Source of the DNA: Methanothrix sp.
Lineage (GTDB): Archaea > Halobacteriota > Methanosarcinia > Methanotrichales > Methanotrichaceae
Direction: 5' to 3'
DNA length: 22,739 nt
NCBI GenBank assembly: GCA_040770465.1
Contig: JAXGJB010000044.1
Coordinates: 1 to 22,739, forward strand
This document shows, piece by piece, positions 2,384 through 20,639 of the stretch. How positions within the stretch are numbered: position 1 is the stretch's first letter; each line of letters starts with the position of its first letter. Position numbers and translations under genes: made by a program. Below the pieces are notes generated by a model. It searched no databases. It saw only the letters and a list, made by a program, of their open reading frames with translations, and was not told the DNA's origin.

Positions 2384-3424
2384 TCAACGGGAGTCGGTCT
2401 CGTTGACCATGAGACCAGTCTCGTTGACCATGATAGTCCCGTTGACCAAGGTCCCGTTGACCAAGGTCTCGTTGACCAAGGTCTCATTGACCATGATCTC
2501 GGTCTCGTTGACCATGATCTCGGTCTCGTTGACCATGATCTCAGTCTCGTTGACCATGATCTCGGTCTCGTTGACCATGATCTCGGTCTCGTTGACCATG
2601 ATCTCGGTCTCGTTGACCATGATCTCGGTCTCGTTGACCATGATCTCGGTCTCGTTGACCATGATCTCGGTCTCGTTGACCACGGGCTCGGTCTCGTTGA
2701 CCATGATCTCGGTCTCGTTGACCATGATCTCGGTCTCGTTGACCACGGGCTCGGTCTCGTTGACCACGGGCTCTTCGACTGCTACCTCAGTCCCGCTGAC
2801 GGCGGTTAGTATTGGCCCAGTCTCGTTGATCACCGGAGCTGCAGGCCCGGTCTCGTCGATCACAGGTGCTGCAGGCCCAGTCTCGTCGATCACAGGTGCT
2901 GCAGGCCCGGTCTCGTCGATCACAGGTGCTGCGGGCCCGGCCTCGCTGACGACTGGCGCCGAGGGGCCTACTACCTCACACGACCCCGTGCTCGCCGCGG
3001 GGGTTCCCATCCCTATGGAATAGGGCTGCATAGCGTTCGATCCCATGGTATACTGATAGGGACTACCAGAGCCGACGGTGTAAGTCTGAAGGCCGCTCGA
3101 TCCAATCGAATACTGGTAGGGGCTTTCCGAACCGACGGTGTAAATCTGAAGGCCGCTCGATCCAATCGAGTACTGGTAGGGGCTTCCCGAACCGACGGTG
3201 TAAGTCTGAAGGCCGCTCGATCCAATCGAATACTGGTAGGGGCTTTCCGAACCGACGGTGTAAGTCTGAAGGCCGCTCGACCCAACCGAATACTGATAGG
3301 GGCTTCCCGAACCGACGGTATATGATGGAGTAGCTGAACTGCAAATTGTATATGCCACTGCTGGCGATAACATGATGGCTGCCAAGAGAAGCGCCGCCGA
3401 AACCGCCAAAAATCCTCTGGTCAT
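2384..3424 (-). CDS. Secreted low-complexity surface glycoprotein (Y/S/G-rich 20-aa repeats, Pro/Ala linker repeats, VNET sequon array)
   Basis: Signal peptide ending in PAVA-Y, RBS GGAGG at 3434-3438, and three in-frame repeat blocks whose variation preserves the protein pattern. Confidence 0.88.
   Translation of the reverse strand: MTRGFLAVSAALLLAAIMLSPAVAYTICSSATPSYTVGSGSPYQYSVGSSGLQTYTVGSESPYQYSIGSSGLQTYTVGSGSPYQYSIGSSGLQIYTVGSESPYQYSIGSSGLQTYTVGSGSPYQYTMGSNAMQPYSIGMGTPAASTGSCEVVGPSAPVVSEAGPAAPVIDETGPAAPVIDETGPAAPVIDETGPAAPVINETGPILTAVSGTEVAVEEPVVNETEPVVNETEIMVNETEIMVNETEPVVNETEIMVNETEIMVNETEIMVNETEIMVNETEIMVNETEIMVNETEIMVNETEIMVNETEIMVNETLVNETLVNGTLVNGTIMVNETGLMVNETDSR
2480..2773. repeat. 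21-bp tandem repeat, about 14 copies, encoding (EIM/EPV)VNET
   Basis: Unit GGTCTCGTTGACCATGATCTC. Five further degenerate 15-21 bp copies lie at about 2395-2479. Confidence 0.95.
2814..2963. repeat. 30-bp tandem repeat, 5 copies, encoding AAPVIDETGP
   Basis: Unit GGCCC(A/G)GTCTCGTCGATCACAGGTGCTGCA with a 30-bp period; the last copy is degenerate. Confidence 0.9.
3051..3320. repeat. 60-bp tandem repeat, about 4.5 copies, encoding YTVGS(G/E)SPYQYSIGSSGLQT
   Basis: Units begin at 3051, 3111, 3171, 3231 and 3291 and are nearly identical, with no unique spacers. Confidence 0.95.
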
Positions 3425-3685
3425 GTGATCCTTCCTCCGATACCTCTCTAAACTTATTCACATACTGAGCTTAAATAATCTCCCCTCTGACAAGAACCGC
3501 CCTGCTGACCGGCTCTCAAGGAACTGAGCATTCTTCACATATATAGACTTTCGTGGCCGTATTCCTTGATAAGCGCCACTGTACACTCCTATTTTGAACT
3601 TGATAAAAAAGATTATATAAATAATTCATGATGCCCCCCCGGAAGATGGACCTCATATCCGAAGGGCATCTGAAGCGCCAGCCCT

Positions 3686-4984
3686 TTACAGAGGAGGCCC
3701 CTGATTCTTCGAAACGGGACGCTCTTCCCCGTACATCTGGGAGGTCACCACGTCCCACCGGCTCCACTCTCCAGGGGAGTAAGTTCCGGCAAGGTCGCGA
3801 ATTATAAGCCCACCATACCCCCGATCCAGAGACCTTTTGAGGAGGGCTTTCGCCTCATCTGGATCGCTCAAAACCACCTCGTCCGCCAGAAATACCTTCG
3901 CAGAGAGGGGAGTTCCCGCAACGCCTCTCAGGACACCGCTCAGATACCTCCTCCTTTCAGCGTAGCTTTCATCAATAAGCTCCGTTCCGTTGAGGTAGAG
4001 GAGATCTGATGCCGCGAAGGACGAGACCGCTGAATCTTTCGACCTCCCTTTGAGGTTGATCTTTCCGAGCATCTCCGACCGGGGCGAGATATCCCCTCGA
4101 AGGACCAGGACGAACTCGCCCTCCATGATGAAGTTGCCCTTCGCCCTCATCAACTCCTCCGCCAGGTCGGCCAGAGACGAAGTGACGTTCCGAAGCTGGC
4201 TTGTATAGACGAAGACCTGTTCGTTGAACTTGTGGACCTGAACCCTAAGCCCGCCGTACCTGACGACGTAAGCTCTCGGCCCATCCCCCTCGATCGTCTC
4301 CCAGGGGTCCTTGCTCCGCCTGAAGAGCATGAGCCTTGCCGGGTTTGGTGGCGCGATCCTCACGTCGAATATCTCATCTCGAGAAGCGCTGAGAGCCACC
4401 ATCCCAAAATCCGGAAGACGCGCATAAGCCCTCTTCACCAGGGACTCGTCGGCAGAGAAGGCCTTCCCAATGGCCGCCGACATCAGGGACGGGCCCAGCC
4501 CCACCATCATCCTCCCGAGGACGGTCCTGGCTATGTACTTGGCCTCCAGAGGGGAGGCGCCGAGAAGAAGCCCCTTCAGGATGGATTTCTTTCTGAACGT
4601 GGATCCAGCTCCCCTCTGAGCAGGTATCATTCGGAGGGAGTCGTATACCTGCAACATATCCGTCGTCGTCCTGGTCAGGGTCTGCTGAGACCGGCTCTGA
4701 GCCATCGCCTCGGCCAGATCTCCTGCATCGGCTCCTTTAGGCTGCGAAGATACGGCCCGACCGGAGATCTCCTCCAGAACCTCCCTGAGGATCTCGGGGC
4801 CTATCCCCATCTCCTGCGGTTCCCAGGGGGGCCAGAGGCGACCCGATAGAAGCCTGACGGCGGGCCGGATTATCTCGGGAGAGAGACCTTTCATTAGAGA
4901 TGCCAGCAGATCGGCCTTGGCCTCTCTCCGTTCCTCTCTGGATACCGCCTCCAGAGCCCTTGCGATCTCGATGTAAGGAGGCAT
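3686..4984 (-). CDS. ATP-dependent DNA ligase-like protein (N-terminal DNA-binding domain plus degenerate adenylation domain, no OB fold), probably catalytically inactive
   Basis: DBD motifs (EMGIG, GDLAE, ASPLEAKYIARTVLGRMMVGLG, VKRAY..PDFG.VA). Motif I reads VRYGGLRVQVHK versus canonical xKxDGxRxQxHK; motif III MEGEFV; IIIa SDLLYLNG; IV GGLIIRD versus EGxxxK. The protein ends just after motif V. Confidence 0.85.
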   Translation of the reverse strand: MPPYIEIARALEAVSREERREAKADLLASLMKGLSPEIIRPAVRLLSGRLWPPWEPQEMGIGPEILREVLEEISGRAVSSQPKGADAGDLAEAMAQSRSQQTLTRTTTDMLQVYDSLRMIPAQRGAGSTFRKKSILKGLLLGASPLEAKYIARTVLGRMMVGLGPSLMSAAIGKAFSADESLVKRAYARLPDFGMVALSASRDEIFDVRIAPPNPARLMLFRRSKDPWETIEGDGPRAYVVRYGGLRVQVHKFNEQVFVYTSQLRNVTSSLADLAEELMRAKGNFIMEGEFVLVLRGDISPRSEMLGKINLKGRSKDSAVSSFAASDLLYLNGTELIDESYAERRRYLSGVLRGVAGTPLSAKVFLADEVVLSDPDEAKALLKRSLDRGYGGLIIRDLAGTYSPGEWSRWDVVTSQMYGEERPVSKNQGPPL

Positions 4985-4990
4985 TGAACG

Positions 4991-5317
4991 CTACCGTTCG
5001 ATCTTGATATCCTTCAGCCCTCTCGCCATCTCCTGAAGCTGATCGATGGCAAAATCCAGGTCTTTGAGAAAGAGCCCGGTCCGCTCCGTGGTGACGGCGC
5101 CCGGCGCCGAGGCGGCGATGAGCCCCTCCTGCTCCAGCACCCGCAACGAGTACCGAACCTTGTGGCTGGGTATCCCCGTCTCTTCAGCCAGCTTGAGGAT
5201 GCCGATCGGCTCATTCTCCACCACGTATTTCAGGATGGTAAGGTGCCTTCTAAGCATCTCAAGCTCTCTTTTCACCTTCTCTGTCACCAAATTCTCACGT
5301 CCGTTCTCAGCGCCCAT
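4991..5317 (-). CDS. Archaeal winged helix-turn-helix regulator (COG3388-like)
   Basis: Signature RHL.IL..V.E.EPIGI.KLAEETG.P.HKVRYSLRVLEQEGLI..S..GA. The start is likely ATG 5317 or GTG 5287 rather than 5512. Its stop is 6 bp from the ligase-like start. Confidence 0.85.
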   Translation of the reverse strand: MGAENGRENLVTEKVKRELEMLRRHLTILKYVVENEPIGILKLAEETGIPSHKVRYSLRVLEQEGLIAASAPGAVTTERTGLFLKDLDFAIDQLQEMARGLKDIKIER

Positions 5318-5815
5318 AACAATATTTATTAAGCAATCTCTATGCTTTATAATTCCATCGATTGACATGGCACATGTTATCATTTGCGGTTCGGATCGGC
5401 TCGTTATATCAGCCCTCCAAAGGGACCATCCCACCAAGGCGGGGGGACCATCCCTCCAAAGGGTCGGGGAGGAGACCGGTCCGCCTTCGTCCGGGACGCC
5501 GATGAAACTCATTATTTGGAGAGACGACCCCCAGGGCTTTTGCTGCCAATTTGGGTTCAGAGCTGATCGAGTCCCAGGAATAATCTCATTTTTACCTGGG
5601 TTTTAAAAACTCACGAGTTTGTCCGAATGCGAATTTCGTTGTGACACGTTTTGACATGCCATGAACTCGGGGCTCGCTCAATTCTCAGTTATTTTGAATC
5701 AACAGATTCATATACGATAGGCTCTTAGCAGGTAATATAAAATGATGAAGAGTTGGAGATCAGATGGGGTTGCAGCTTAGGGTTTTCCGGATCAAAAATA
5801 GTGTGGTCGTCTGAG

Positions 5816-6136
5816 ATGATACGAATCTTGAACTCAGAGTTCGACTTGGCTCGGCTTATGCCCGGCGAGGAGGAGCTGGTCGTCGCCTTCGTGCCGACAA
5901 ACCGCGACATATACAGAATGCTCCAGTCCTGTCACAAGCTGAAGGCGGTTTACATCCACCCTGACACCTTCAAAGATATGCCCTGTGTAGGCCAGACCCT
6001 TCTTTACATGCAGAAGGTGGAATTGGTGGTGGATGACGCAGTCCCAAAGAGTTTGTCTGAGCAGGAGAAGGACGCCGGCAAAGCCCAGGAGCCTGAACCA
6101 TCTCACCCCGCAAGCCTCGTCGTGGTCGGCCGTTGA
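5816..6136 (+). CDS. DUF1699 family protein
   Basis: MIRILNSEFDLARL.PGEEE...AFVPTNRDI..MLQSC.KLKAV.I...F......LL.MQ.VEL matches the methanogen DUF1699 pattern as I recall it. The start was moved from TTG 5753 to ATG 5816. Confidence 0.75.
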   Translation: MIRILNSEFDLARLMPGEEELVVAFVPTNRDIYRMLQSCHKLKAVYIHPDTFKDMPCVGQTLLYMQKVELVVDDAVPKSLSEQEKDAGKAQEPEPSHPASLVVVGR

Positions 6137-6223: not shown

Positions 6224-6263
6224 TCAGGCGAAGGGTTTCAGAAATCGGTTCGCCTTCGCCTGA
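6224..6263 (-). terminator. 11-bp stem-loop straddling the ftsZ stop codon
   Basis: TCAGGCGAAGG (6224-6234) pairs perfectly with CCTTCGCCTGA (6253-6263). A short U-rich tract follows on the minus strand. Confidence 0.4.
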
Positions 6264-7416
6264 GAAAATCTATCCCATGTTTGGAGACGACCCGGCTCGA
6301 TCTCAGATCTTCCTTGCCCAGGATCTGAGGAGACGAGACGCCGGTCACCACCAGCATCGTCCTGATGCCGTTGTCGAGGCTCGGATCGATCTGGGCACCC
6401 CAGATGATCCTCGCTTCTGGGTTTATCCTCTCGTAGACCTGTTCCACCACCGTCTCGGCATCGGAGATCGTCATGCTCGATCCGCCCACCACGTTGACCA
6501 GCGCCGAGGTCGCTCCAGAGATGTCCACATCCAGGAGGGGGCTTCTCAGGGCTTTGATCACCGAGTCTTTGCTCTTCATCTCGCCTTCGGCCTCCCCGAG
6601 ACCGATCATGGCGACGCCCCCGTTGGACATTATCGTCCTGACGTCGGCGAAGTCGAGATTTATCAGGCCAGGCCTTGTGATAAGCTCCGTTATCCCCTTG
6701 ACCGAACGCATCAAAACCTCGTCCGCCACCTTGAAGGCCGCCTGGAGGGGAAGATCGGGGACGACTTCGAGGAGCCGGTCGTTGGGGACCACGATGACGG
6801 TGTCTGATACCTCTCGGAGCCGTTTCAGCCCAACATCGGCGTTGGCCATCCTGATCGCCCCTTCGGCGGCGAAGGGGAGGGTCACCACAGAGATGGTGAG
6901 AGCGCCCATCTCCCTTGCCACCTCCGCAACGACCGGGGCGGCACCGGTCCCGGTCCCGCCGCCGAGGCCGCAGGTGATGAAGACCATGTCCGCCCCCTCC
7001 ACTGCGGCCCTGATCTCATCTATGCTCTCCCTCGCCGCCTCTTCTCCAATGGATGGGAGGCTCCCCGCCCCAAGGCCCCGGGTCGTCCTTCGCCCGATCA
7101 GGAGCCGCCGGTCCGCGTTTATGTGGAGAAGGTGCTGAGCGTCGGTGTTCATGGCAAAGAGCTCGGCGCCCTCGATCCCGGTCTCGGCAAGCCGCTCGAT
7201 GGTGTTGGACCCACCTCCGCCGCAGCCGATTACCTTTATGACCGTTGTGAGCTGCTCCAGAACCGCCACCAGATCATCGTCGTTCTCCATGGACCTCGAC
7301 ACAACTCTCCGATCTTCAAGATCTTCGTCGTCCTCCATGACCCTCGACGGAACTGTCCGGCCCTCGAGCTCAGCTCTATTAAGAGCTTCATCTATAATCG
7401 ACTTCACGTCCATCAC
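6238..7416 (-). CDS. ftsZ: Cell division protein FtsZ (archaeal FtsZ1-like)
   Basis: [17 protein letters not shown], tubulin signature [10 protein letters not shown]7 loop INLDFAD, IIWGA, N-terminal extension and C-terminal GIDF. Start is GTG 7416 or ATG 7413. Confidence 0.98.
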
Positions 7417-11918: not shown

Positions 11919-12146
11919 TCACCATCCCCAGAGAAAGTCCTCATCGCCATGGGGCCTTTGCACTTCTCTTTGCCAGAAATAGATGTCGATCAACGGTATG
12001 GATATGCAAAACCCGACCGAGATGATCTCCGCTTTGAGATGGAGAGAGGTTGGCCATCGGTTATAGTGCTCCAGCAAAAGATTGATACTGACCATCGTTA
12101 CACACATGGAATAAGCGAATAGCCCTAATTTTCGTTTATATCGCAC
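11919..12146 (-). CDS. Small hypothetical membrane protein (2 predicted TM segments)
   Basis: 75-aa ORF with two hydrophobic stretches, abutting the DUF2240 gene. GTG start; no recognisable family. Confidence 0.45.
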   Translation of the reverse strand: MRYKRKLGLFAYSMCVTMVSINLLLEHYNRWPTSLHLKAEIISVGFCISIPLIDIYFWQREVQRPHGDEDFLWGW

Positions 12147-12198
12147 CTTTGATGAAAATACCGAAACATTTATAGTTCCTTATCTTAGATATCACCTT

Positions 12199-12999
12199 AT
12201 GTTAAATTGTTTTAGGATAGAACTGCTATTACTTGTCGTAGCAATAGTGTTACCTATTGTGGCATTCTCTGAACCAGATTACAATACATACGATGCCTCG
12301 GAATTCAGCGTCGAATATCCTTCAGATTGGCAAGTTGAGAATAAGGTCTTTGAAAAAGGGAATTCGAGTTTCACTTTTCTCTCTGAAAATCGTTCAATAA
12401 GCGTTGTTCTTTCGCCCACAAATCTAAATTGTTTTTTAATTGGCTTTAACAGGGGAAATTTCTCTATCCCTAGAAATCAAGCCAATTTCTCCTACAGAAG
12501 ATTCAAACCCCCAGCAGAAAATGAAGCTCCTTTAGGGACACGTGAAAACCCGCTCCCTATTGGAGAGTATAGCCTCACCACATTTGATAAATGGAAAATA
12601 TCTGTCATAAGCGTCATTCCAAACGCAACTGATATTGTGCTTGAGGAGAACACGTCCAACTATCCACCAAAAGCCGGGTATCAATTTTTCTTAGCAAGAA
12701 TTAGAGCCTGCTATGTCGGCTCGGGTTCTGACGAATTTAAAGGTCCAATTGTCCCAGGCTCTGGCGGAGTACCTCTCAAGAGGTTGAAGGCTCTTGGTGC
12801 ATCAAATGTGGTTTACAAAAGGGACGACCTATGCGGTGTGATTCCCGATCCGCTACCAGATTCTGAGGTTCTCTCTGGCGAATGTCTCGAGGGATATGTT
12901 GGATGGGAGATAAAATCAACTGATGCTACCTCGTTGGTGATGTTTGATGGGGGCCCCGTAATCAAAGGCGAGCACAAATATCTCTCACTTGTACCTTAA
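12199..12999 (+). CDS. Secreted protein: short PsbP-like N-terminal segment plus DUF4352-like Ig-fold domain
   Basis: Signal peptide; YNTY...EFSVEYPSDWQV (PsbP-like start); GTRENPLPIGE...WKISV..V.PNAT..V..EN..N.PP.AG.QF..A.I...YVG; EV..G...EGYV.WEI. Codon usage is AT-rich. Confidence 0.7.
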   Translation: MLNCFRIELLLLVVAIVLPIVAFSEPDYNTYDASEFSVEYPSDWQVENKVFEKGNSSFTFLSENRSISVVLSPTNLNCFLIGFNRGNFSIPRNQANFSYRRFKPPAENEAPLGTRENPLPIGEYSLTTFDKWKISVISVIPNATDIVLEENTSNYPPKAGYQFFLARIRACYVGSGSDEFKGPIVPGSGGVPLKRLKALGASNVVYKRDDLCGVIPDPLPDSEVLSGECLEGYVGWEIKSTDATSLVMFDGGPVIKGEHKYLSLVP

Positions 13000-13015
13000 T
13001 GAGGGTTACAATATC

Positions 13016-14621: not shown

Positions 14622-16208
14622 ATGAAGCTCTTAAGCCTGCTCGCCATCCTGCTCTTGCTGGTCGCCGTTTCCACGGCAGAGCTTGCGGCAGACGTAGATC
14701 GATTCGAATTGGAACTCCATCCTGGTGAGATGACCGAACGGGTCCTCGCCCTCGAGAACTCGGGGGACGGACCCATCCGCGAGCTCACCATGAGCCCCGT
14801 CGCCGGCAGTGCGAGAGATCTGGTGGAGATGGAGATTGAGGATTTTGAGATGCTCCTTCCGGGGGAGAAGGCGGTGGTGGATATCACCTTCACTTCGCCG
14901 TCGGAGACTATCCCCGGAACCTATTCGGGGTTCGTCTACTTCTTCGACGATGTATCCTCGCTGCCGATCATGGTGGAGTTTGTGATCGAGATCATCGAGC
15001 AGGAGAGCTATGGGGTCAGCTTCAGCATCGATGATGCGAGATCTGCCTCTTTGACCGCGGACCCTGATGAGCCCGCAGAGTTCGAGCTTCTGGTCAGAAA
15101 CGCGGGCCTCTTCAAGGACGTCATATCCATCGACGCCCCCCAGCTCCCGCCCCGATGGACGGCGACCCTCTTCGACGGCGCCGACGCCGTGGCCCTGCCC
15201 TACAACCTCACCCTCTCCTCGGGGGTGAGCCGGATCCTCGGCCTGGAGATCGCGGGCGGCAGGCCGGGAGAGACTCAGGAGATCGAGATCGAGGCGACGT
15301 CCCTTGGCGACCCCTCCAAGAACGCCACAGTGACCGCAGAGATCGAACTCAATCATGAGATCCGCCAGTATGAGGCGATCATCGACCTGCCGGCGGTTAT
15401 GGTCACCGACAGGACCCATACAGGATCCATCAGCATCGTTCTGAACGTCGACGAGCTGATCTCCGTCGAGATTGCAGCTCCTCCAGAAATTCTGGTGATG
15501 CCCGAAAGCCAGGTGATACCGGTCGGAGAGACGAGGTCGGGGAAGGGGGAGTTCACCCTCCTGGCCACCGAGCCGGGAAGGTTTGAGATCGAATTCTACC
15601 TCCACGACTCGTACAACATAAGCCTCCCCACCGAGAGCTCGGAGGTTCTGGTGGTGGATTCGGCCCAGTTCGCCATCGTGACCGGAGACGGCCTATTGTA
15701 CAGAGCTCTGGCCTTATCCTACTCTGAAGGGGTGGTGAACGATACCGTGCCCGTGATCACCCTCAAAGGCGGCGAGCTATCCGATGAAGACATCCAGCTC
15801 CTGGAAGAACTCCCCCTCGCCAAGGTCGTGATCCTTGGCAACGAGTCGGTCGTCTCCTCGGAGGTGGAGACGCTCCTCTCGGAGATGATGCCCACCGATA
15901 GGATAGGGGGCGACGACATCTGCGAGACGTCGTGGCTCTTCGCATCGACGATCTGGCCGAAGGGGGTTGACGCGGTGGTCCTGGCAGGATCGAACGAGTC
16001 GGAGGCATTTGCGGCATATCAGGAGGCGAAGAAGGTCGGTGCGCCTCTGATAATCTGCGGTGCCCCCCTCTCGGAGACGAGTTCTGCCGCGATGAAGGGT
16101 ATGAAGGAAGAGGGACTGTCCAGAGCCCTCATTGGAGGGGCCGGAGTAGATGCGAATGCTGTAGAGGCGCTGAAGGATGAGGGCCTCTCCATCGAGGAGG
16201 TGGGATAG
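14622..16208 (+). CDS. Secreted protein with about 3 Ig-like (COG1470/NEW3-like) domains and two C-terminal cell-wall-binding-2-like repeats
   Basis: Signal peptide; beta-sandwich motifs (L.PGE......L.N.G, PGTYSG, FEL.VRN.G...D). PVI...GELS......L.....KVVILG.ESVVS.EVE..L....DRIGGDDICETS and APLII match the CWB2 (PF04122) pattern. Confidence 0.78.
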   Translation: MKLLSLLAILLLLVAVSTAELAADVDRFELELHPGEMTERVLALENSGDGPIRELTMSPVAGSARDLVEMEIEDFEMLLPGEKAVVDITFTSPSETIPGTYSGFVYFFDDVSSLPIMVEFVIEIIEQESYGVSFSIDDARSASLTADPDEPAEFELLVRNAGLFKDVISIDAPQLPPRWTATLFDGADAVALPYNLTLSSGVSRILGLEIAGGRPGETQEIEIEATSLGDPSKNATVTAEIELNHEIRQYEAIIDLPAVMVTDRTHTGSISIVLNVDELISVEIAAPPEILVMPESQVIPVGETRSGKGEFTLLATEPGRFEIEFYLHDSYNISLPTESSEVLVVDSAQFAIVTGDGLLYRALALSYSEGVVNDTVPVITLKGGELSDEDIQLLEELPLAKVVILGNESVVSSEVETLLSEMMPTDRIGGDDICETSWLFASTIWPKGVDAVVLAGSNESEAFAAYQEAKKVGAPLIICGAPLSETSSAAMKGMKEEGLSRALIGGAGVDANAVEALKDEGLSIEEVG

Positions 16209-19200
16209 ATGAGACGCTTTTTAACTCTCCTGACGTTGTTTGCCATATTCGCGATCGCAGCCGGTGCCCAGATGGAGAGGGGGACCAAATCGGATTCTCT
16301 GGAAGAGATCATCCTGGTCGGGGCCGACGACTGGCGTCCAGCGGTCGCAGCGACGCCTCTTGGAATCTGGTCGGAGGACGGCGGCGTCGAGACGAGGCCC
16401 ATCCTGATATTGCCGAGGGATGTTCAGGCAAAAGAGAGGCTTGGCTGGATCGATCAGGCCGACCTCGAACGGTACGGCCCGGTCTCCGCCCTCCACGCCA
16501 TGACCGCGGCCAACGTATCGGCCCTGGTGATAGACGCCGATGGAGATCTCGCGAAGAGCCTGGTGGAGGCGGCCAAAAAAGAGGGGGTAAAAGCTTACGT
16601 CACCGCCACCCTGGACGTTCCAGATGACTCCGAGACGGGGGTCTCCGATGATGACGTCCTGGAGGCAGAGGACGAAAAAGCCGCCTTGGGACTTTTGGCG
16701 GAGATGCTCGTAGGGGACCATGAGGTCGAACCTGCCACCAGATCCGGCTCCGTTCCGGAGGAGTACAGAGACCTTTATCCTGACTCGGCCCAGATCGCCA
16801 TCGGCTCCGGCGGCGTCGTCATCTCTGACCGATTATGCCCCGTGGATCCCGATGCCAGAGATCATCTCTACGACCGGGTCGAGGAGGTGATAGAAGATTA
16901 CGGCGCTGACGGCGTCGTCCTCCTCGACTTCGGATTCATCGACGAAGATCACTGCCTCTGCGACGTCTGCAAGGAGGAGTTCTACAACGATACGGGGGTC
17001 GACCTGTCCAGAGCGGGGTCCAGCAGCTATAACCAGCAGCTTTGGGCCCGATGGAAAGAGGAGCAGATAAAAGAGGTCGTCGGGGAGGTGGGCAACATCA
17101 CCTCCCAGCTCGGTCCCGCGAAGCTCGGCATCGCCCTGGGCGACCCCTTCGACCGGAGCGAGGGATACAACTTCGCTGAGATCTCCGACCTCGCCGACTT
17201 CGTGGTGGTGAACCCCGTCGATCCGGCGGACATGGGAGTGGCAGCATCGATGACCGACACCCCCGTCTACGTCAGGCTCAGCGACGACTACGTAGAGTAC
17301 ACCATATCCACCCAGAACGTGGAGGGTGCCGTCGGCCAAATCGAAGATCTGGCAGAGGAAGGCGCCTCCGGGATGGTCTTCGAATATGACGTCGTCTACA
17401 CCCCCCTCTGGTCGGAGCTTCAGCCTCCGTCCCCCTCGGTCCAATGGCTCATGGACCGGCTGGAGGGCAGGACCCTGGGCATAGGCGACGTACTCTGGGA
17501 CTGCGACTCGGTCATAAAATATAATGACAGCTCTGAGATGGCATCAAAGATCGCCTCACGGTGGGAAAGCTCCCCCGGTGCGGTCCTGGTGGGCGACAAC
17601 TACAGCGCCGGCCTCACCGGCGCGGCCATAGCATCTTACCTCAACTGGCCGATCCTCTTCGTCGACGGCGAGCTCTCCAACACCACCGAAAACGACCTGC
17701 TCCGCCTCGGGGCGACGACTGCGATCACAATGGGGCCCGTATCCGAGAGGGCAATATCTCGCCTCACCGACCTGAACATGACGATCGTGGAGGGGGATAA
17801 TGAGCTATTGGTCCATGAGATGAGGGCCCGCGGGGACGATGTAAACTCAGTGGTCCTGACCAACTCTCACGACCTCTCCCTCCTCGCCCCTAAGCCGAAA
17901 CTGGTCCTGACCAGGACGGAGATCGACGAGAACCTCGTCCTCGAGGTTGAGGCGAACCCGGCTGAGATCCCATCCGATCAGGAGGGCGAGATCGTCCGGC
18001 TCAAGATAACCCTCAAGAACGACGGCGATGAGGTCCTGGAGGATCTGGACCTGACCGACGTTTTCCTCCCCACGAGGCTCGTAGCCTGGTGGAGCTCTGC
18101 ATCCGGAAAAGTCGAGGTCGTCGATCCCTTAACAGGAGAGGAGCCGACCGTCGAAAGCTCCTTTTTCAGCGGGACGAGCCTCAACTGGACCGTCGACCAG
18201 CTGGGGCCTAAAGAGTACGCATCTCTGAATCTGGAGGTGCTGATCCTCCACGCTCTGGACGCGGGGTGGACCCAGCCCCTGGACGGCGGGATCTGGGTGA
18301 CCTACCACGACATGGATGAAGATGAGGATGAAGACGATGAGGACGGAAACGGCGGCGAAGATGGTGATGCCGCCGCAGACGGCCCGTTCGCCAACATAAC
18401 CTACCCCTCCGTCACCTCGCCGGGATGGACAAATCTGTCCTGGGATGTTACAAGGGATTTGTCCACCGTGATCCTCAACTACCGCAGCCCCGATGGGAGC
18501 GAAGACAGCCTCTACTTCTACAGCTGCCGGCCGGGGAAGGTCTCCAACGCCACCGTCCTCTTTGGAAGGCCGGGAACCTGGACCTTCAACCTCGAGGCGT
18601 GGAGCCAAGGCGAGATGGATCACAGGACCGAGAACTTCACAGTGAGGGTCAGATCCGCCGCCAGCCCCATCAACGTGACCGCCTTCAGCTTCACCAAGAT
18701 CCCCAAGATTTCCCTCATCTCGGCAGAGATGGCCGGGGCGAGGGGAGGGATCCTCGTCGATGTTGCAACTGATCCTCAGGATATCGATCCATCGGAGGTG
18801 GAGGAGGACCTCCAGACCCTGGTCGAAGAGCTGGATATCTCGCCGGCGTACCTGATCGTGGTGGGCGGACCCGGATCTCTTCCCTTCATATCCACGGGAG
18901 ATAGACAAACGTCATGGATCTTCGAGTACGACCTGTACCGCGATTACACAATCCAGCTCGACGACGATGGCTACCAGGACGTCGCCACTGGGAGGATGAT
19001 GGGACTGAGCGTCTACGACGCCTCCCAGATGGCCGCCAGAACCCTCGCCTACGACAGGATTGGAGGCGACTGGAGAGACTCCGCCCTGATAATATCGTCA
19101 CCTGCCGACATTCCCACCTGGCCCGCGTCGCCGGTACCGCTGCGGATCGGAGAGTACCTGAGGGCTGCGGGGCTCGACGCCGAGAACCTCCGCTGGGAGG

Positions 19201-20639
19201 AGGCAACCTACCAGAGGGTATCCTCGAAGATGAACAGCGGCGAGAACATCGTCTACTTCGATTATCATGGTGTCGAATGGGGCTGGGAACTCTCTGTCTG
19301 GTCCCTGATGGACCAGCTTCTGGACGAGGAGCATGTCAAGCAGCTGACCCTCGCACCTCAGACCACCACCACTTCGGCCTGCCTCACCTCCAGGTTGAAG
19401 GGGGAGATCTTCCCTTACAGAGACGGGATCGAGATATACATCCCGATGAGGCTGGAGGACTCCATGGCCCTGGCGTTCCTCAAGGCGGGGGGCGTGAACT
19501 ATGCCGGACCTGCCGCCAACTCCTGGATATTCATCTCCGATGACTATGTAGGAAGGATGCATCAGGCCATGATCTTCGAGAACGCCACCATCGGCGATTC
19601 GATAATGGCTGCAAACAACCATTACGCGTCGAAGATCCTGGCCACCGAGGGGATCGATCTTGAGAAGATCGACGAAACCCAGATCTGGGACCTCTCCGTC
19701 GAGGAGATGCTCAACCAGACCGTGAGAGTCTTCACCCTCCTTGGAGATCCCGCCTTCAGGCCCTCGATACCGAAGACCCCGGAGCTGCCCTATTCGGTCG
19801 AGACCTCGAACGTCACCGAATCGAACGCCACAAACGATGTATCGGTAACCATCACCCCTTCATCAGAGTGGTCCAGCGACTGGATCTACTGGATCGTCGA
19901 GGACTCGTCGGACGACTATCTGAGCCTCAACTCGCCCGCCGCCCTGATTGGAGAGGTGACCCTCCCCATAGACGCCGAGGAGATCGTGGTGAAAGAGAAG
20001 GGACGGGCTGTATGGCACGGCGAAGAATTGATCGGATCGTTCAAGCGGGTGACTTGGCCGGTTCTGAGCCCCGCCCTCGGCGAGAGCAGGACATTCACCG
20101 TCGAGTACAGGCTGATCCCGGGGGAGGTCCAGGTCGTCAACGTCTCGGTGGGGTGGACACCATTCTCCCTCCACCTCGCACCGAAGGATCCTTCCGTCAC
20201 CAAGCTCCTGGATAAGAAGGACTATCGAGGGATATTCACCATCGCAGGAGACGGCTGGAACTACACCATCAACGACGACCAGGCCGTCAACGTGACAGAC
20301 CTCGTGCCTGGGAGGGGGTACATCATAGACGGCCTGGAGAGCTTCTCCCTGGAGATAGCCGGAAAGCCGGTAGACCTCCCCTATGCTGTGGAGCTTTACG
20401 AGGGCTGGAACCTGGTGGGAGTTCCCAAAAACGAGACGGTCTTCCTCACCAACGTCACAGTGAGGGCGAACCACAAGCGATATTCATACTCCGAAGCCGT
20501 CGATGAGGGGATAGTCTCCGCCTTCCTCTGGACTTATCGGGACGGAGGTTGGGTCAATATAGAGAAGAACGAACCCATGATCCCCGGGGTGGCCTACATG
20601 GTGGAGGCTGCAGAAGAGTGCAAGCTGGAGTTTGGCTGA
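16209..20639 (+). CDS. Large secreted multidomain hydrolase: CWB2-like repeats, glycoside hydrolase-like TIM barrel, DUF11/Ig-like domains, peptidase C25 (gingipain-like) and paired GWN repeats
   Basis: Signal peptide. GH-like LCP.DP..R..L...VEEV...Y.ADGV.L.D with C.C..C. CWB2-like AA.ASYLNWPILFVDG.LS. C25 motifs YL.VVGG...LP, VATGR..G, YHG (H1020), SACLT (C1058), A.AFL..GG..Y.G, TIG, LLGDP. C-terminal GW(T/N)....PG.(G/A)Y repeats. RBS GGAGGTGG at 16196-16203. Confidence 0.85.
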   Translation: MRRFLTLLTLFAIFAIAAGAQMERGTKSDSLEEIILVGADDWRPAVAATPLGIWSEDGGVETRPILILPRDVQAKERLGWIDQADLERYGPVSALHAMTAANVSALVIDADGDLAKSLVEAAKKEGVKAYVTATLDVPDDSETGVSDDDVLEAEDEKAALGLLAEMLVGDHEVEPATRSGSVPEEYRDLYPDSAQIAIGSGGVVISDRLCPVDPDARDHLYDRVEEVIEDYGADGVVLLDFGFIDEDHCLCDVCKEEFYNDTGVDLSRAGSSSYNQQLWARWKEEQIKEVVGEVGNITSQLGPAKLGIALGDPFDRSEGYNFAEISDLADFVVVNPVDPADMGVAASMTDTPVYVRLSDDYVEYTISTQNVEGAVGQIEDLAEEGASGMVFEYDVVYTPLWSELQPPSPSVQWLMDRLEGRTLGIGDVLWDCDSVIKYNDSSEMASKIASRWESSPGAVLVGDNYSAGLTGAAIASYLNWPILFVDGELSNTTENDLLRLGATTAITMGPVSERAISRLTDLNMTIVEGDNELLVHEMRARGDDVNSVVLTNSHDLSLLAPKPKLVLTRTEIDENLVLEVEANPAEIPSDQEGEIVRLKITLKNDGDEVLEDLDLTDVFLPTRLVAWWSSASGKVEVVDPLTGEEPTVESSFFSGTSLNWTVDQLGPKEYASLNLEVLILHALDAGWTQPLDGGIWVTYHDMDEDEDEDDEDGNGGEDGDAAADGPFANITYPSVTSPGWTNLSWDVTRDLSTVILNYRSPDGSEDSLYFYSCRPGKVSNATVLFGRPGTWTFNLEAWSQGEMDHRTENFTVRVRSAASPINVTAFSFTKIPKISLISAEMAGARGGILVDVATDPQDIDPSEVEEDLQTLVEELDISPAYLIVVGGPGSLPFISTGDRQTSWIFEYDLYRDYTIQLDDDGYQDVATGRMMGLSVYDASQMAARTLAYDRIGGDWRDSALIISSPADIPTWPASPVPLRIGEYLRAAGLDAENLRWEEATYQRVSSKMNSGENIVYFDYHGVEWGWELSVWSLMDQLLDEEHVKQLTLAPQTTTTSACLTSRLKGEIFPYRDGIEIYIPMRLEDSMALAFLKAGGVNYAGPAANSWIFISDDYVGRMHQAMIFENATIGDSIMAANNHYASKILATEGIDLEKIDETQIWDLSVEEMLNQTVRVFTLLGDPAFRPSIPKTPELPYSVETSNVTESNATNDVSVTITPSSEWSSDWIYWIVEDSSDDYLSLNSPAALIGEVTLPIDAEEIVVKEKGRAVWHGEELIGSFKRVTWPVLSPALGESRTFTVEYRLIPGEVQVVNVSVGWTPFSLHLAPKDPSVTKLLDKKDYRGIFTIAGDGWNYTINDDQAVNVTDLVPGRGYIIDGLESFSLEIAGKPVDLPYAVELYEGWNLVGVPKNETVFLTNVTVRANHKRYSYSEAVDEGIVSAFLWTYRDGGWVNIEKNEPMIPGVAYMVEAAEECKLEFG

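Follow-up and report, generated by a model that had tools for sequence, protein, structure and literature searches.

In a stretch of 22,739 nucleotides from Methanothrix sp. (assembly GCA_040770465.1, contig JAXGJB010000044.1, positions 1 to 22,739; hereafter the window), we found that the gene at positions 3686 to 4984 of the minus strand encodes a selected, catalytically dead paralogue of the replicative DNA ligase that has no OB domain. We call it the pseudo-ligase. We think it reasonably probable that the protein is kept as a non-catalytic, DNA-binding scaffold that may be associated with PCNA. The gene, its parts and the spacer that follows it are listed here.

3686..4984, minus strand: pseudo-ligase coding sequence, 432 residues plus stop; the DNA-binding domain (DBD) and NTase domain of an ATP-dependent DNA ligase, with degenerate catalytic motifs and without an OB domain.
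4370..4984, minus strand: DBD, about residues 1-205, all-helical; PF04675 covers residues 3-166, helices of the AlphaFold2 model run to residue 201, and 8 of 12 ligase-conserved columns are kept.
4673..4687, minus strand: QQTLT loop, residues 100-104, aligned to the motif QKSFF with which Thermococcales ligases contact PCNA; Q100 does not vary within the family.
3737..4342, minus strand: remnant of the NTase (adenylation) domain, about residues 215-416; PF01068 covers residues 239-408, the AlphaFold2 model has strands, and 12 of 33 ligase-conserved columns are kept.
4250..4261, minus strand: motif I remnant RYGG (AGG TAC GGC GGG) replacing KxDG, from the codon check and alignments.
3797..3814, minus strand: motif IV remnant GGLIIR replacing EGxxxK, from alignment and codon check.
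3737..3757, minus strand: motif V position, WDVVTSQ replacing WLKxKP with both lysines gone, from alignment and codon check.
3689..3736, minus strand: C-terminal tail, residues 417-432, predicted to be disordered (pLDDT < 50) and poorly conserved, with a noisy and higher ratio of non-synonymous to synonymous substitution rates (dN/dS).
3425..3685, no strand: spacer of 261 nucleotides 3' of the pseudo-ligase stop, without a recognisable OB-domain remnant.

The first-pass annotation of this DNA had described an intact frame of 432 codons, and we indeed found no internal stop in it. Searches against Pfam matched the two domains DNA_ligase_A_N (PF04675, E 2.1e-30) and DNA_ligase_A_M (PF01068, E 2e-22) and gave no match to the OB-domain family DNA_ligase_A_C (PF04679). 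With the general ligase model of NCBIfam, TIGR00574, the protein scored 149.3 bits, below the cut-off of 217.8, and it fell far under the cut-offs of all the equivalog ligase models in that database. The closest sequence matches in the PDB were the archaeal ligases 4eq5, 9df9 and 2cfm (E about 1e-48 to 1e-50), and their alignments stop at residue ~410, which is motif V. The C-terminus lies 16 residues past this motif. When the C-termini of 12 longer relatives, described below, and that of the genome's own ligase were compared with positions 3300-3800 by tblastn, no OB remnant was found 3' of the stop, and all matches with E < 0.01 fell within the open reading frame of the pseudo-ligase. The absence of an OB domain, which had been proposed at first sight, was thus confirmed by both the lack of a Pfam match and the lack of a downstream remnant. 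Two details had to be corrected: the frame had been said to end at GEER and in fact continues for 10 residues (PVSKNQGPPL), and the final stretch had been likened to the first OB strand, while its DVVTSQ corresponds, in the alignment, to WLKIKP, which is motif V in the genome's own ligase.

In ATP-dependent ligases, the lysine of motif I is the AMP acceptor, motifs IV and V contact phosphates, an aromatic residue of motif IIIa stacks on the adenine, and the OB domain with its motif VI is required for adenylation. In the pseudo-ligase, motif I is R242-Y-G-G with the arginine codon AGG at 4259-4261, the glutamate and the lysine of motif IV are changed to glycine and arginine (GGLIIR), and motif V (WDVVTSQ) has no lysine, all as the first reading of the sequence had it; motif III is kept as MEGEF. 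Because the AMP-accepting lysine, the aspartate of motif I and the residues of motifs IV, V and VI are lost, the protein should be incapable of the canonical chemistry, and adenylation and nick sealing of the usual kind would be impossible for it.

A protein search gave 82 matches, 75 of which (P0001-P0075, 33-98% identity) were without PF04679; the remaining 7 were ordinary ligases with less than 30% identity. The sources of the pseudo-ligase relatives are labelled Methanothrix, Methanocrinis or Methanotrichaceae, and the proteins are entered in databases as 'DNA ligase-1', 'ATP-dependent DNA ligase' or 'hypothetical protein'. When the 75 relatives were aligned together with the genome's own ligase, none of them had KxDG: the aspartate was gone in every one, and the lysine position was occupied by K, R, W or I. 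The lysine of motif IV was replaced by arginine in 74 of them and by histidine in one, and the LKxK pattern of motif V was present in none. A profile built from 51 members and searched against 1.84 billion representative proteins retrieved about two dozen representatives of the family at E <= 1e-81, with a canonical ligase of 551 residues (P0104) interspersed among them, and then ordinary ligases. KxDG was also absent from all 23 global representatives of the family, among which the position of the motif I lysine was additionally L, V, N, S, A or F.

The losses are unevenly spread over the domains. We took the columns that are at least 85% conserved in 101 true ligases, numbered after the genome's own ligase, and scored them in the 23 representatives. 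The DBD has 12 such columns, of which the family kept 8; the NTase domain has 33, of which it kept 12, and of the 17 in the OB domain it kept none. This bears out the earlier impression that the DBD is the well-kept part. Among the lost columns are E248, K250, D252, R270, F340, E396, K401, K418 and K420; retention was 0% at E248, D252 and K418, 4% at R270 and K401, and 9% at F340. The alignment of the 51 family sequences contains 20 invariant columns.

These data also bear on whether the pseudo-ligase might still be an enzyme, with a nucleophile or a chemistry out of the ordinary; it might, for instance, bind or transfer nucleotides although the motif I lysine is missing. The arginine of motif I (column R255) is kept in 87% of the representatives and Q257 and H259 in 100%, the glutamate of motif III is retained in this clade (MEGEF), and some distant members have a lysine at the motif I position (KYPG). 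However, even members of one genus differ at that position, which varies freely over ten residue types (K, R, W, I, L, V, N, S, A, F), the columns named above are all lost, and the OB domain with motif VI is absent. Moreover, the family has no invariant lysine of its own, since the near-invariant K23, K149 and K252 include columns that are also present in the genome's own ligase. A residual enzymatic activity of this kind is, in our view, very unlikely.

The same genome encodes an apparently functional ligase. Its assembly (66 contigs, 2.54 Mb) gave two PF01068 matches, one being the pseudo-ligase and the other a gene on contig C6 of this genome (G000), which encodes a canonical ligase of 563 residues with KFDG, DGE, EGVMLK, WLKIK and RFPR; all six motifs are present, and the intact ligase whose presence elsewhere in the genome the first-pass annotation had asked to have confirmed does exist, on another contig. 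The two proteins are paralogues that share their first two domains, but the canonical one has the six motifs and the OB domain and is nested among true ligases on the tree, far from the pseudo-ligase clade. Within the genus the true ligase is 82-90% identical and the pseudo-ligase 58-70%; PCNA, for scale, is 94-98% identical. A full-length ligase of the active type was present in every genome of the family that we examined. Another genome of the genus (G030) has a third ligase-like match at C148:16-1605 (locus L049), which is 40% identical to the true ligase and has a single TGA in its frame; this may be a further ligase homologue or a broken one.

We searched all 105 genomes of the order, which make up a single family with 16 genera. 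A pseudo-ligase-type locus was found together with a full-length ligase in about 100 of them, in 16 genera and with single-contig genomes included. In four genomes that are 66-88% complete we found only the true ligase, and one genome (56% complete) was ambiguous. Five other families of the class, represented by 102 genomes, gave no pseudo-ligase; the matches there were full-length ligases alone, with about 29-34% identity to the query. Among the genomes searched, the pseudo-ligase thus occurs only in this one methanogen family. In a tree of 75 rows, the 47 rows of the family formed one clade apart from the true ligases (SH-aLRT 99). The tree was rooted at its midpoint only, and neither a donor nor an order of events was deduced from it. 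The duplication would date back to the ancestor shared by the family labelled Methanotrichaceae, or further. P0131, a ligase-like protein of 426 residues with degenerate motifs and SARFGGVY at motif I, has a very long branch (1.49) that does not belong to the pseudo-ligase clade, and is possibly the product of an independent inactivation.

Longer members of the family show how the OB domain disappeared. Eighteen of the 75 relatives have at least 500 residues, and their C-termini carry a ruined motif VI (YSILEPVIEG versus YALRFPR... in true ligases). These long forms (about 525-571 residues, labelled Methanothrix) fall in the same clade as the pseudo-ligase of the window and have the same degenerate motifs I-V and the same winged-helix neighbour, but they keep a third domain that is homologous to the ligase OB domain. 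With PF04679 this domain did not reach the threshold (best E 0.005); when 17 long forms were combined in a profile, however, they aligned with true ligases over 515 columns that include the whole OB domain, with an hhalign probability of 100 and E 1.8e-56. Short and long forms interleave on the tree, and parsimony requires at least four changes for the 31 rows that come from genomes (27 short and 4 long) and no fewer than six short/long changes once metagenome representatives are added. One locus, L024, ends just within the start of the OB domain. The OB domain has been lost secondarily and repeatedly in this family, at least four times. As for the earlier expectation that orthologues would retain neither KxDG nor an OB fold, the first part stood in all 75 relatives and the second did not, some of them having a degenerate OB domain with motif VI destroyed.

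We paired this genome with 14 others of its genus and calculated dN/dS by the Nei-Gojobori method, using the same 14 pairs for the three genes listed here.

Pseudo-ligase: median dN/dS 0.27, dN 0.22, dS 0.84.
True ligase: median dN/dS 0.15, dN 0.09, dS 0.65.
Neighbouring winged-helix gene: median dN/dS 0.16, dN 0.08, dS 0.55.

The pseudo-ligase is under purifying selection that is relaxed about two-fold in comparison with its active parent. Its DBD had a median dN/dS of about 0.24 and its NTase domain one of about 0.32 (medians taken by hand). The ratio for the whole gene is far below the value near 1 that had been considered beforehand as a sign against selection, and together with the active ligase and the loss of KxDG in the orthologues it supports the first-pass proposal that the paralogue is non-catalytic and under selection, and is not a random pseudogene. 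Slow decay of a pseudogene, or an artefact of annotation, would explain why the gene evolves faster than the true ligase and why truncations seem to progress, from the loss of the OB domain to the cut of L024 within the OB start and the forms of 363 residues in genus g2. The intact frames in about 100 genomes of 16 genera and the dN/dS of 0.27 contradict such decay, and it agrees poorly with a confidently predicted fold and with 20 invariant columns among 51 sequences; we give it hardly any credence.

The AlphaFold2 model, made with the 51-sequence alignment as input, had a pLDDT of 90.1 and a pTM of 0.87, and the predicted disorder was confined to residues 417-432. Foldseek matched this model to archaeal ligases at TMq 0.83-0.88 (3gde 0.88, 3rr5 0.87, 2cfm 0.84) and to complexes of human LIG1 and DNA at TMq about 0.78. 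The predicted fold of the pseudo-ligase is confidently ligase-like.

What the retained surfaces might do is suggested by a loop of the DBD. In the ligase of Pyrococcus furiosus, the DBD loop that contacts PCNA has the motif QKSFF (PMC13136779). By alignment to the ligase of Thermococcus sibiricus, QKSFF pairs with Q100-Q-T-L-T of the pseudo-ligase, in which the Gln-x-x-(Leu/Phe) pattern of the loop is present as Q100 and L103. Q100 is invariant in the 51-sequence alignment, and the glutamine and a leucine or isoleucine of the loop occur in all 23 representatives; among true ligases the glutamine is found in 67 of 101 and the leucine in 77 of 101. The domains of the family are also more basic, with a median net charge of +2 versus -1 for the DBD and +5 versus -3 for the NTase domain, in a comparison with only 8 true ligases. 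When the complex of the pseudo-ligase and the genome's PCNA was predicted, the score was 0.53 (runs 0.54, 0.53 and 0.51) and the best of 3 controls gave 0.00; the contacts agreed by at least 91% between runs, and the partner pLDDT was at least 86. The mark for such scores is passed by 116 of 157 solved complexes and by 2 of 215 mismatched pairs, but only 18 of the 157 solved complexes lie at or below 0.60, where both passing mismatches also lie, and passes as low as this are more often wrong than right unless the pairing is likely beforehand. The model thus lends weak support to a possible association with PCNA.

The first-pass annotation had suggested a sensor of nicks or ends, a scaffold or a ligase modulator, and the hints that bear on such roles are indirect: the DBD columns that are kept, the greater positive charge, the conserved glutamine of the PCNA loop and the weakly supported complex. 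From these observations we propose the following course of events. A duplicate of the archaeal replicative ATP-dependent DNA ligase would have lost its catalytic residues and, later in this lineage, its OB domain, while selection kept the helical DBD joined to the NTase-fold body. The resulting protein would bind DNA as the first two domains of a ligase do, without sealing it, and would probably be recruited via the DBD loop that tethers archaeal ligases to PCNA. Where strands are discontinuous, it might then act without catalysis, reading or protecting the site or serving as a scaffold there, or it might compete with the true ligase. The latter idea may be extended to a modulator of the true ligase, which would pair with it or compete for nicks or for PCNA and so tune the sealing of Okazaki fragments. 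Such a modulator finds its active paralogue in every genome examined and has the DBD and the glutamine of the PCNA loop for the task, and in these respects it overlaps with the scaffold; the two genes, however, lie on different contigs, and we consider a modulator in this narrower sense improbable. A bolder form of the scaffold, to which we assign a low though not negligible chance, is a clamp-tethered 'nick reader' that binds strand discontinuities, cannot seal them, and holds nicks open or marks them. If so, it could be used, for instance, in strand discrimination during repair, in coupling replication to division near ftsZ or in timing the maturation of Okazaki fragments, and the repeated loss of the OB domain would mean that encircling and sealing are dispensable and that the DBD-NTase platform and the PCNA loop are the working parts.

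Directly upstream of the pseudo-ligase there is a small gene, which is followed in the upstream direction by two others.

4991..5316, minus strand: small winged-helix gene (HTH_24-like); the likely start is the ATG at 5316, and about the last 100 residues are conserved.
5753..6136, plus strand: DUF1699 gene, divergent and upstream of the winged-helix gene; conserved in closer genera.
6238..7416, minus strand: ftsZ, beyond the DUF1699 gene.

The winged-helix protein matched HTH_24 with E 2.3e-6, and the stop of its gene lies 6 nucleotides ahead of the ATG of the pseudo-ligase. The gene was directly upstream, on the same strand, in all 30 pseudo-ligase loci that we fetched, across which its product is 52-87% identical (mostly at least 63%) and the pseudo-ligase 37-71%. 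By hand comparison of coordinates, the two genes are adjacent on one strand, with gaps of 6-10 nucleotides, in 88 of the 96 family genomes that hold both; in one of the 96 the winged-helix gene is at a contig end, where adjacency cannot be judged, and the remaining 7, which are all 7 genomes of genus g14, have the genes unlinked. In G099, the single g14 genome inspected for this, the winged-helix gene comes straight after ftsZ with a gap of 21 nucleotides, and because of this adjacency the order ftsZ-winged-helix gene looks like the older arrangement. Of 201 genomes of the class, 193 have the winged-helix gene, in a single copy; families without a pseudo-ligase are among them, and there it stands on its own and is followed by the gene for GluRS or RtcB. 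It is older than the pseudo-ligase. The protein showed only generic winged-helix, SorC/CggR-N and ArsR likeness. A role as a defence protein was set aside, for PADLOC matched only the generic winged-helix part of Csa3/CARF models (E 4e-5 to 7e-3); the pseudo-ligase itself had no PADLOC match to a defence system.

The pseudo-ligase and the winged-helix gene are most likely co-transcribed. Metatranscriptome libraries of one study of an anaerobic digester yielded four short contigs of low depth that fall on 4561-5048 with at least 99% identity, although carry-over of DNA is possible, and one of the four spans the junction of the two genes (4758-5048); we take these as a weak hint of transcription. 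No RNA contig covers 3400-4560, which is uninformative either way. A scan of 3300-5800 found no terminator-like site, and three sigma-70-like matches in the same region were discarded as irrelevant to an archaeon.

Such a neighbourhood raises the possibility that the pseudo-ligase is the partner of the co-transcribed winged-helix protein, for which it would sense the state of the DNA (nicks or ends) or add DNA affinity; the pair would then act in the regulation of transcription or of the chromosome near the ftsZ locus, not at the replisome. The 6-nucleotide spacer, the order kept in 30 of 30 loci and 88 of 96 genomes and, as a weak hint, the contig over the junction are consistent with a partnership. 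So are the four family genomes without a pseudo-ligase match, which are also without a winged-helix match, as fits one shared locus missing from incomplete assemblies. The winged-helix gene is nevertheless common in families that have no pseudo-ligase, the genes are separated throughout g14, and no fused longer form of the pseudo-ligase (757-2160 residues) was found at E <= 1e-40, which is weak evidence. On balance we regard a partnership as rather unlikely.

Several observations weigh against the scaffold that we favour. The non-synonymous rate of the pseudo-ligase is about 2.4 times that of the true ligase (dN 0.22 versus 0.09), so that the constraint on it is only moderate. Within the well-kept DBD, column R168, which is 95% conserved in true ligases, is kept in 17% of the representatives. 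The aromatic position of the PCNA motif is threonine in the pseudo-ligase; in the representatives it is serine in 13 of 23 and phenylalanine in 4 of 23, compared with phenylalanine in 40 of 101 true ligases. Since ligase-PCNA complexes have already been solved, the pass of the predicted complex may show likeness and not binding, and the binding of both DNA and PCNA by the pseudo-ligase is something that we infer. The forms of genus g2 (L099-L101, from three genomes) have only about 363 residues, with homology to the long forms ending before motif IV, and those of genus g14 have 385-410; not all members, therefore, need the C-terminal part of the NTase domain. The unlinking in g14 and the stand-alone winged-helix genes of other families imply that the pairing of the two genes need not be functional, and the evidence for expression is thin.

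The remaining features of the window are given here for completeness.

2384..3424, minus strand: protein of 346 residues with an N-terminal hydrophobic, signal-like segment.
12001..13000: region with a G+C content of 0.42, against 0.51-0.62 elsewhere in the window; possibly foreign DNA.
12199..12999, plus strand: open reading frame of 266 residues without a Pfam match.
14622..20639, plus strand: two large putative surface proteins in tandem.

The protein of 346 residues contains two long arrays of tandem repeats, first of the YTVGSGSPYQYSIGSSGLQT type and then of the ETEIMVN type, and had no match in Pfam or NCBIfam. Closer genera have conserved roughly the first 150 residues of it at the same place, immediately 3' of the pseudo-ligase (52-83% identity), and it is possibly a surface or sheath protein. 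The first of the two tandem proteins has 528 residues with weak CWB2 and NEW3 matches, and the second has 1476 residues with a Peptidase_C25 (gingipain-type) domain.

Replicative ligases are usually viewed purely as enzymes, and here an environmentally dominant family of acetoclastic methanogens keeps a second, dead copy under selection. The pseudo-ligase may be regarded as a natural separation-of-function mutant without chemistry, in which surfaces for binding DNA, and perhaps others for binding the clamp, are predicted to remain, and it could reveal roles of ligase domains apart from sealing. The independent losses of the OB domain offer a comparative series for mapping the surfaces that carry the new function. 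On the practical side, labels such as 'DNA ligase' and 'hypothetical protein' lead to a miscount of ligase copies in these genomes.

The known system closest in sequence is the archaeal replicative ligase of the Lig1 type (2cfm, 3gde, 3rr5, 4eq5, 9df9/9dfa, 2hiv), which has the same DBD and NTase folds (TMq 0.83-0.88, E about 1e-50) and whose PCNA-contact loop, QKSFF in P. furiosus (PMC13136779), aligns with the invariant glutamine of the family. Unlike these enzymes, the pseudo-ligase has no motif I lysine or aspartate, no motif IV glutamate or lysine, no motif V lysines, no OB domain and no motif VI, and it scores below the TIGR00574 cut-off and has a dN about 2.4-fold that of the true ligase. 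We found no description of this family in print; a survey of replication genes (PMC3984812) reports Methanosaeta paralogues of RFC and PolB and, in the sections available, does not mention a second ligase. The nearest precedent that we found is A20 (OPG148) of poxviruses, a replication processivity factor which is reported (bioRxiv 10.1101/2022.11.22.517515) to be an inactivated derivative of an NAD-dependent DNA ligase. By analogy, A20 would illustrate how a ligase with a disrupted catalytic site can be kept for a non-enzymatic role at the replisome. It is viral, however, belongs by that account to the NAD-dependent (LigA/LigB-type) branch and is detectable by structure comparison alone, whereas the pseudo-ligase is cellular, derives from an ATP-dependent replicative ligase, is recognisable by sequence and coexists with its active parent. 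The exaptation of an inactivated ligase would thus be seen here in a cellular archaeon and with the ATP-dependent replicative enzyme.

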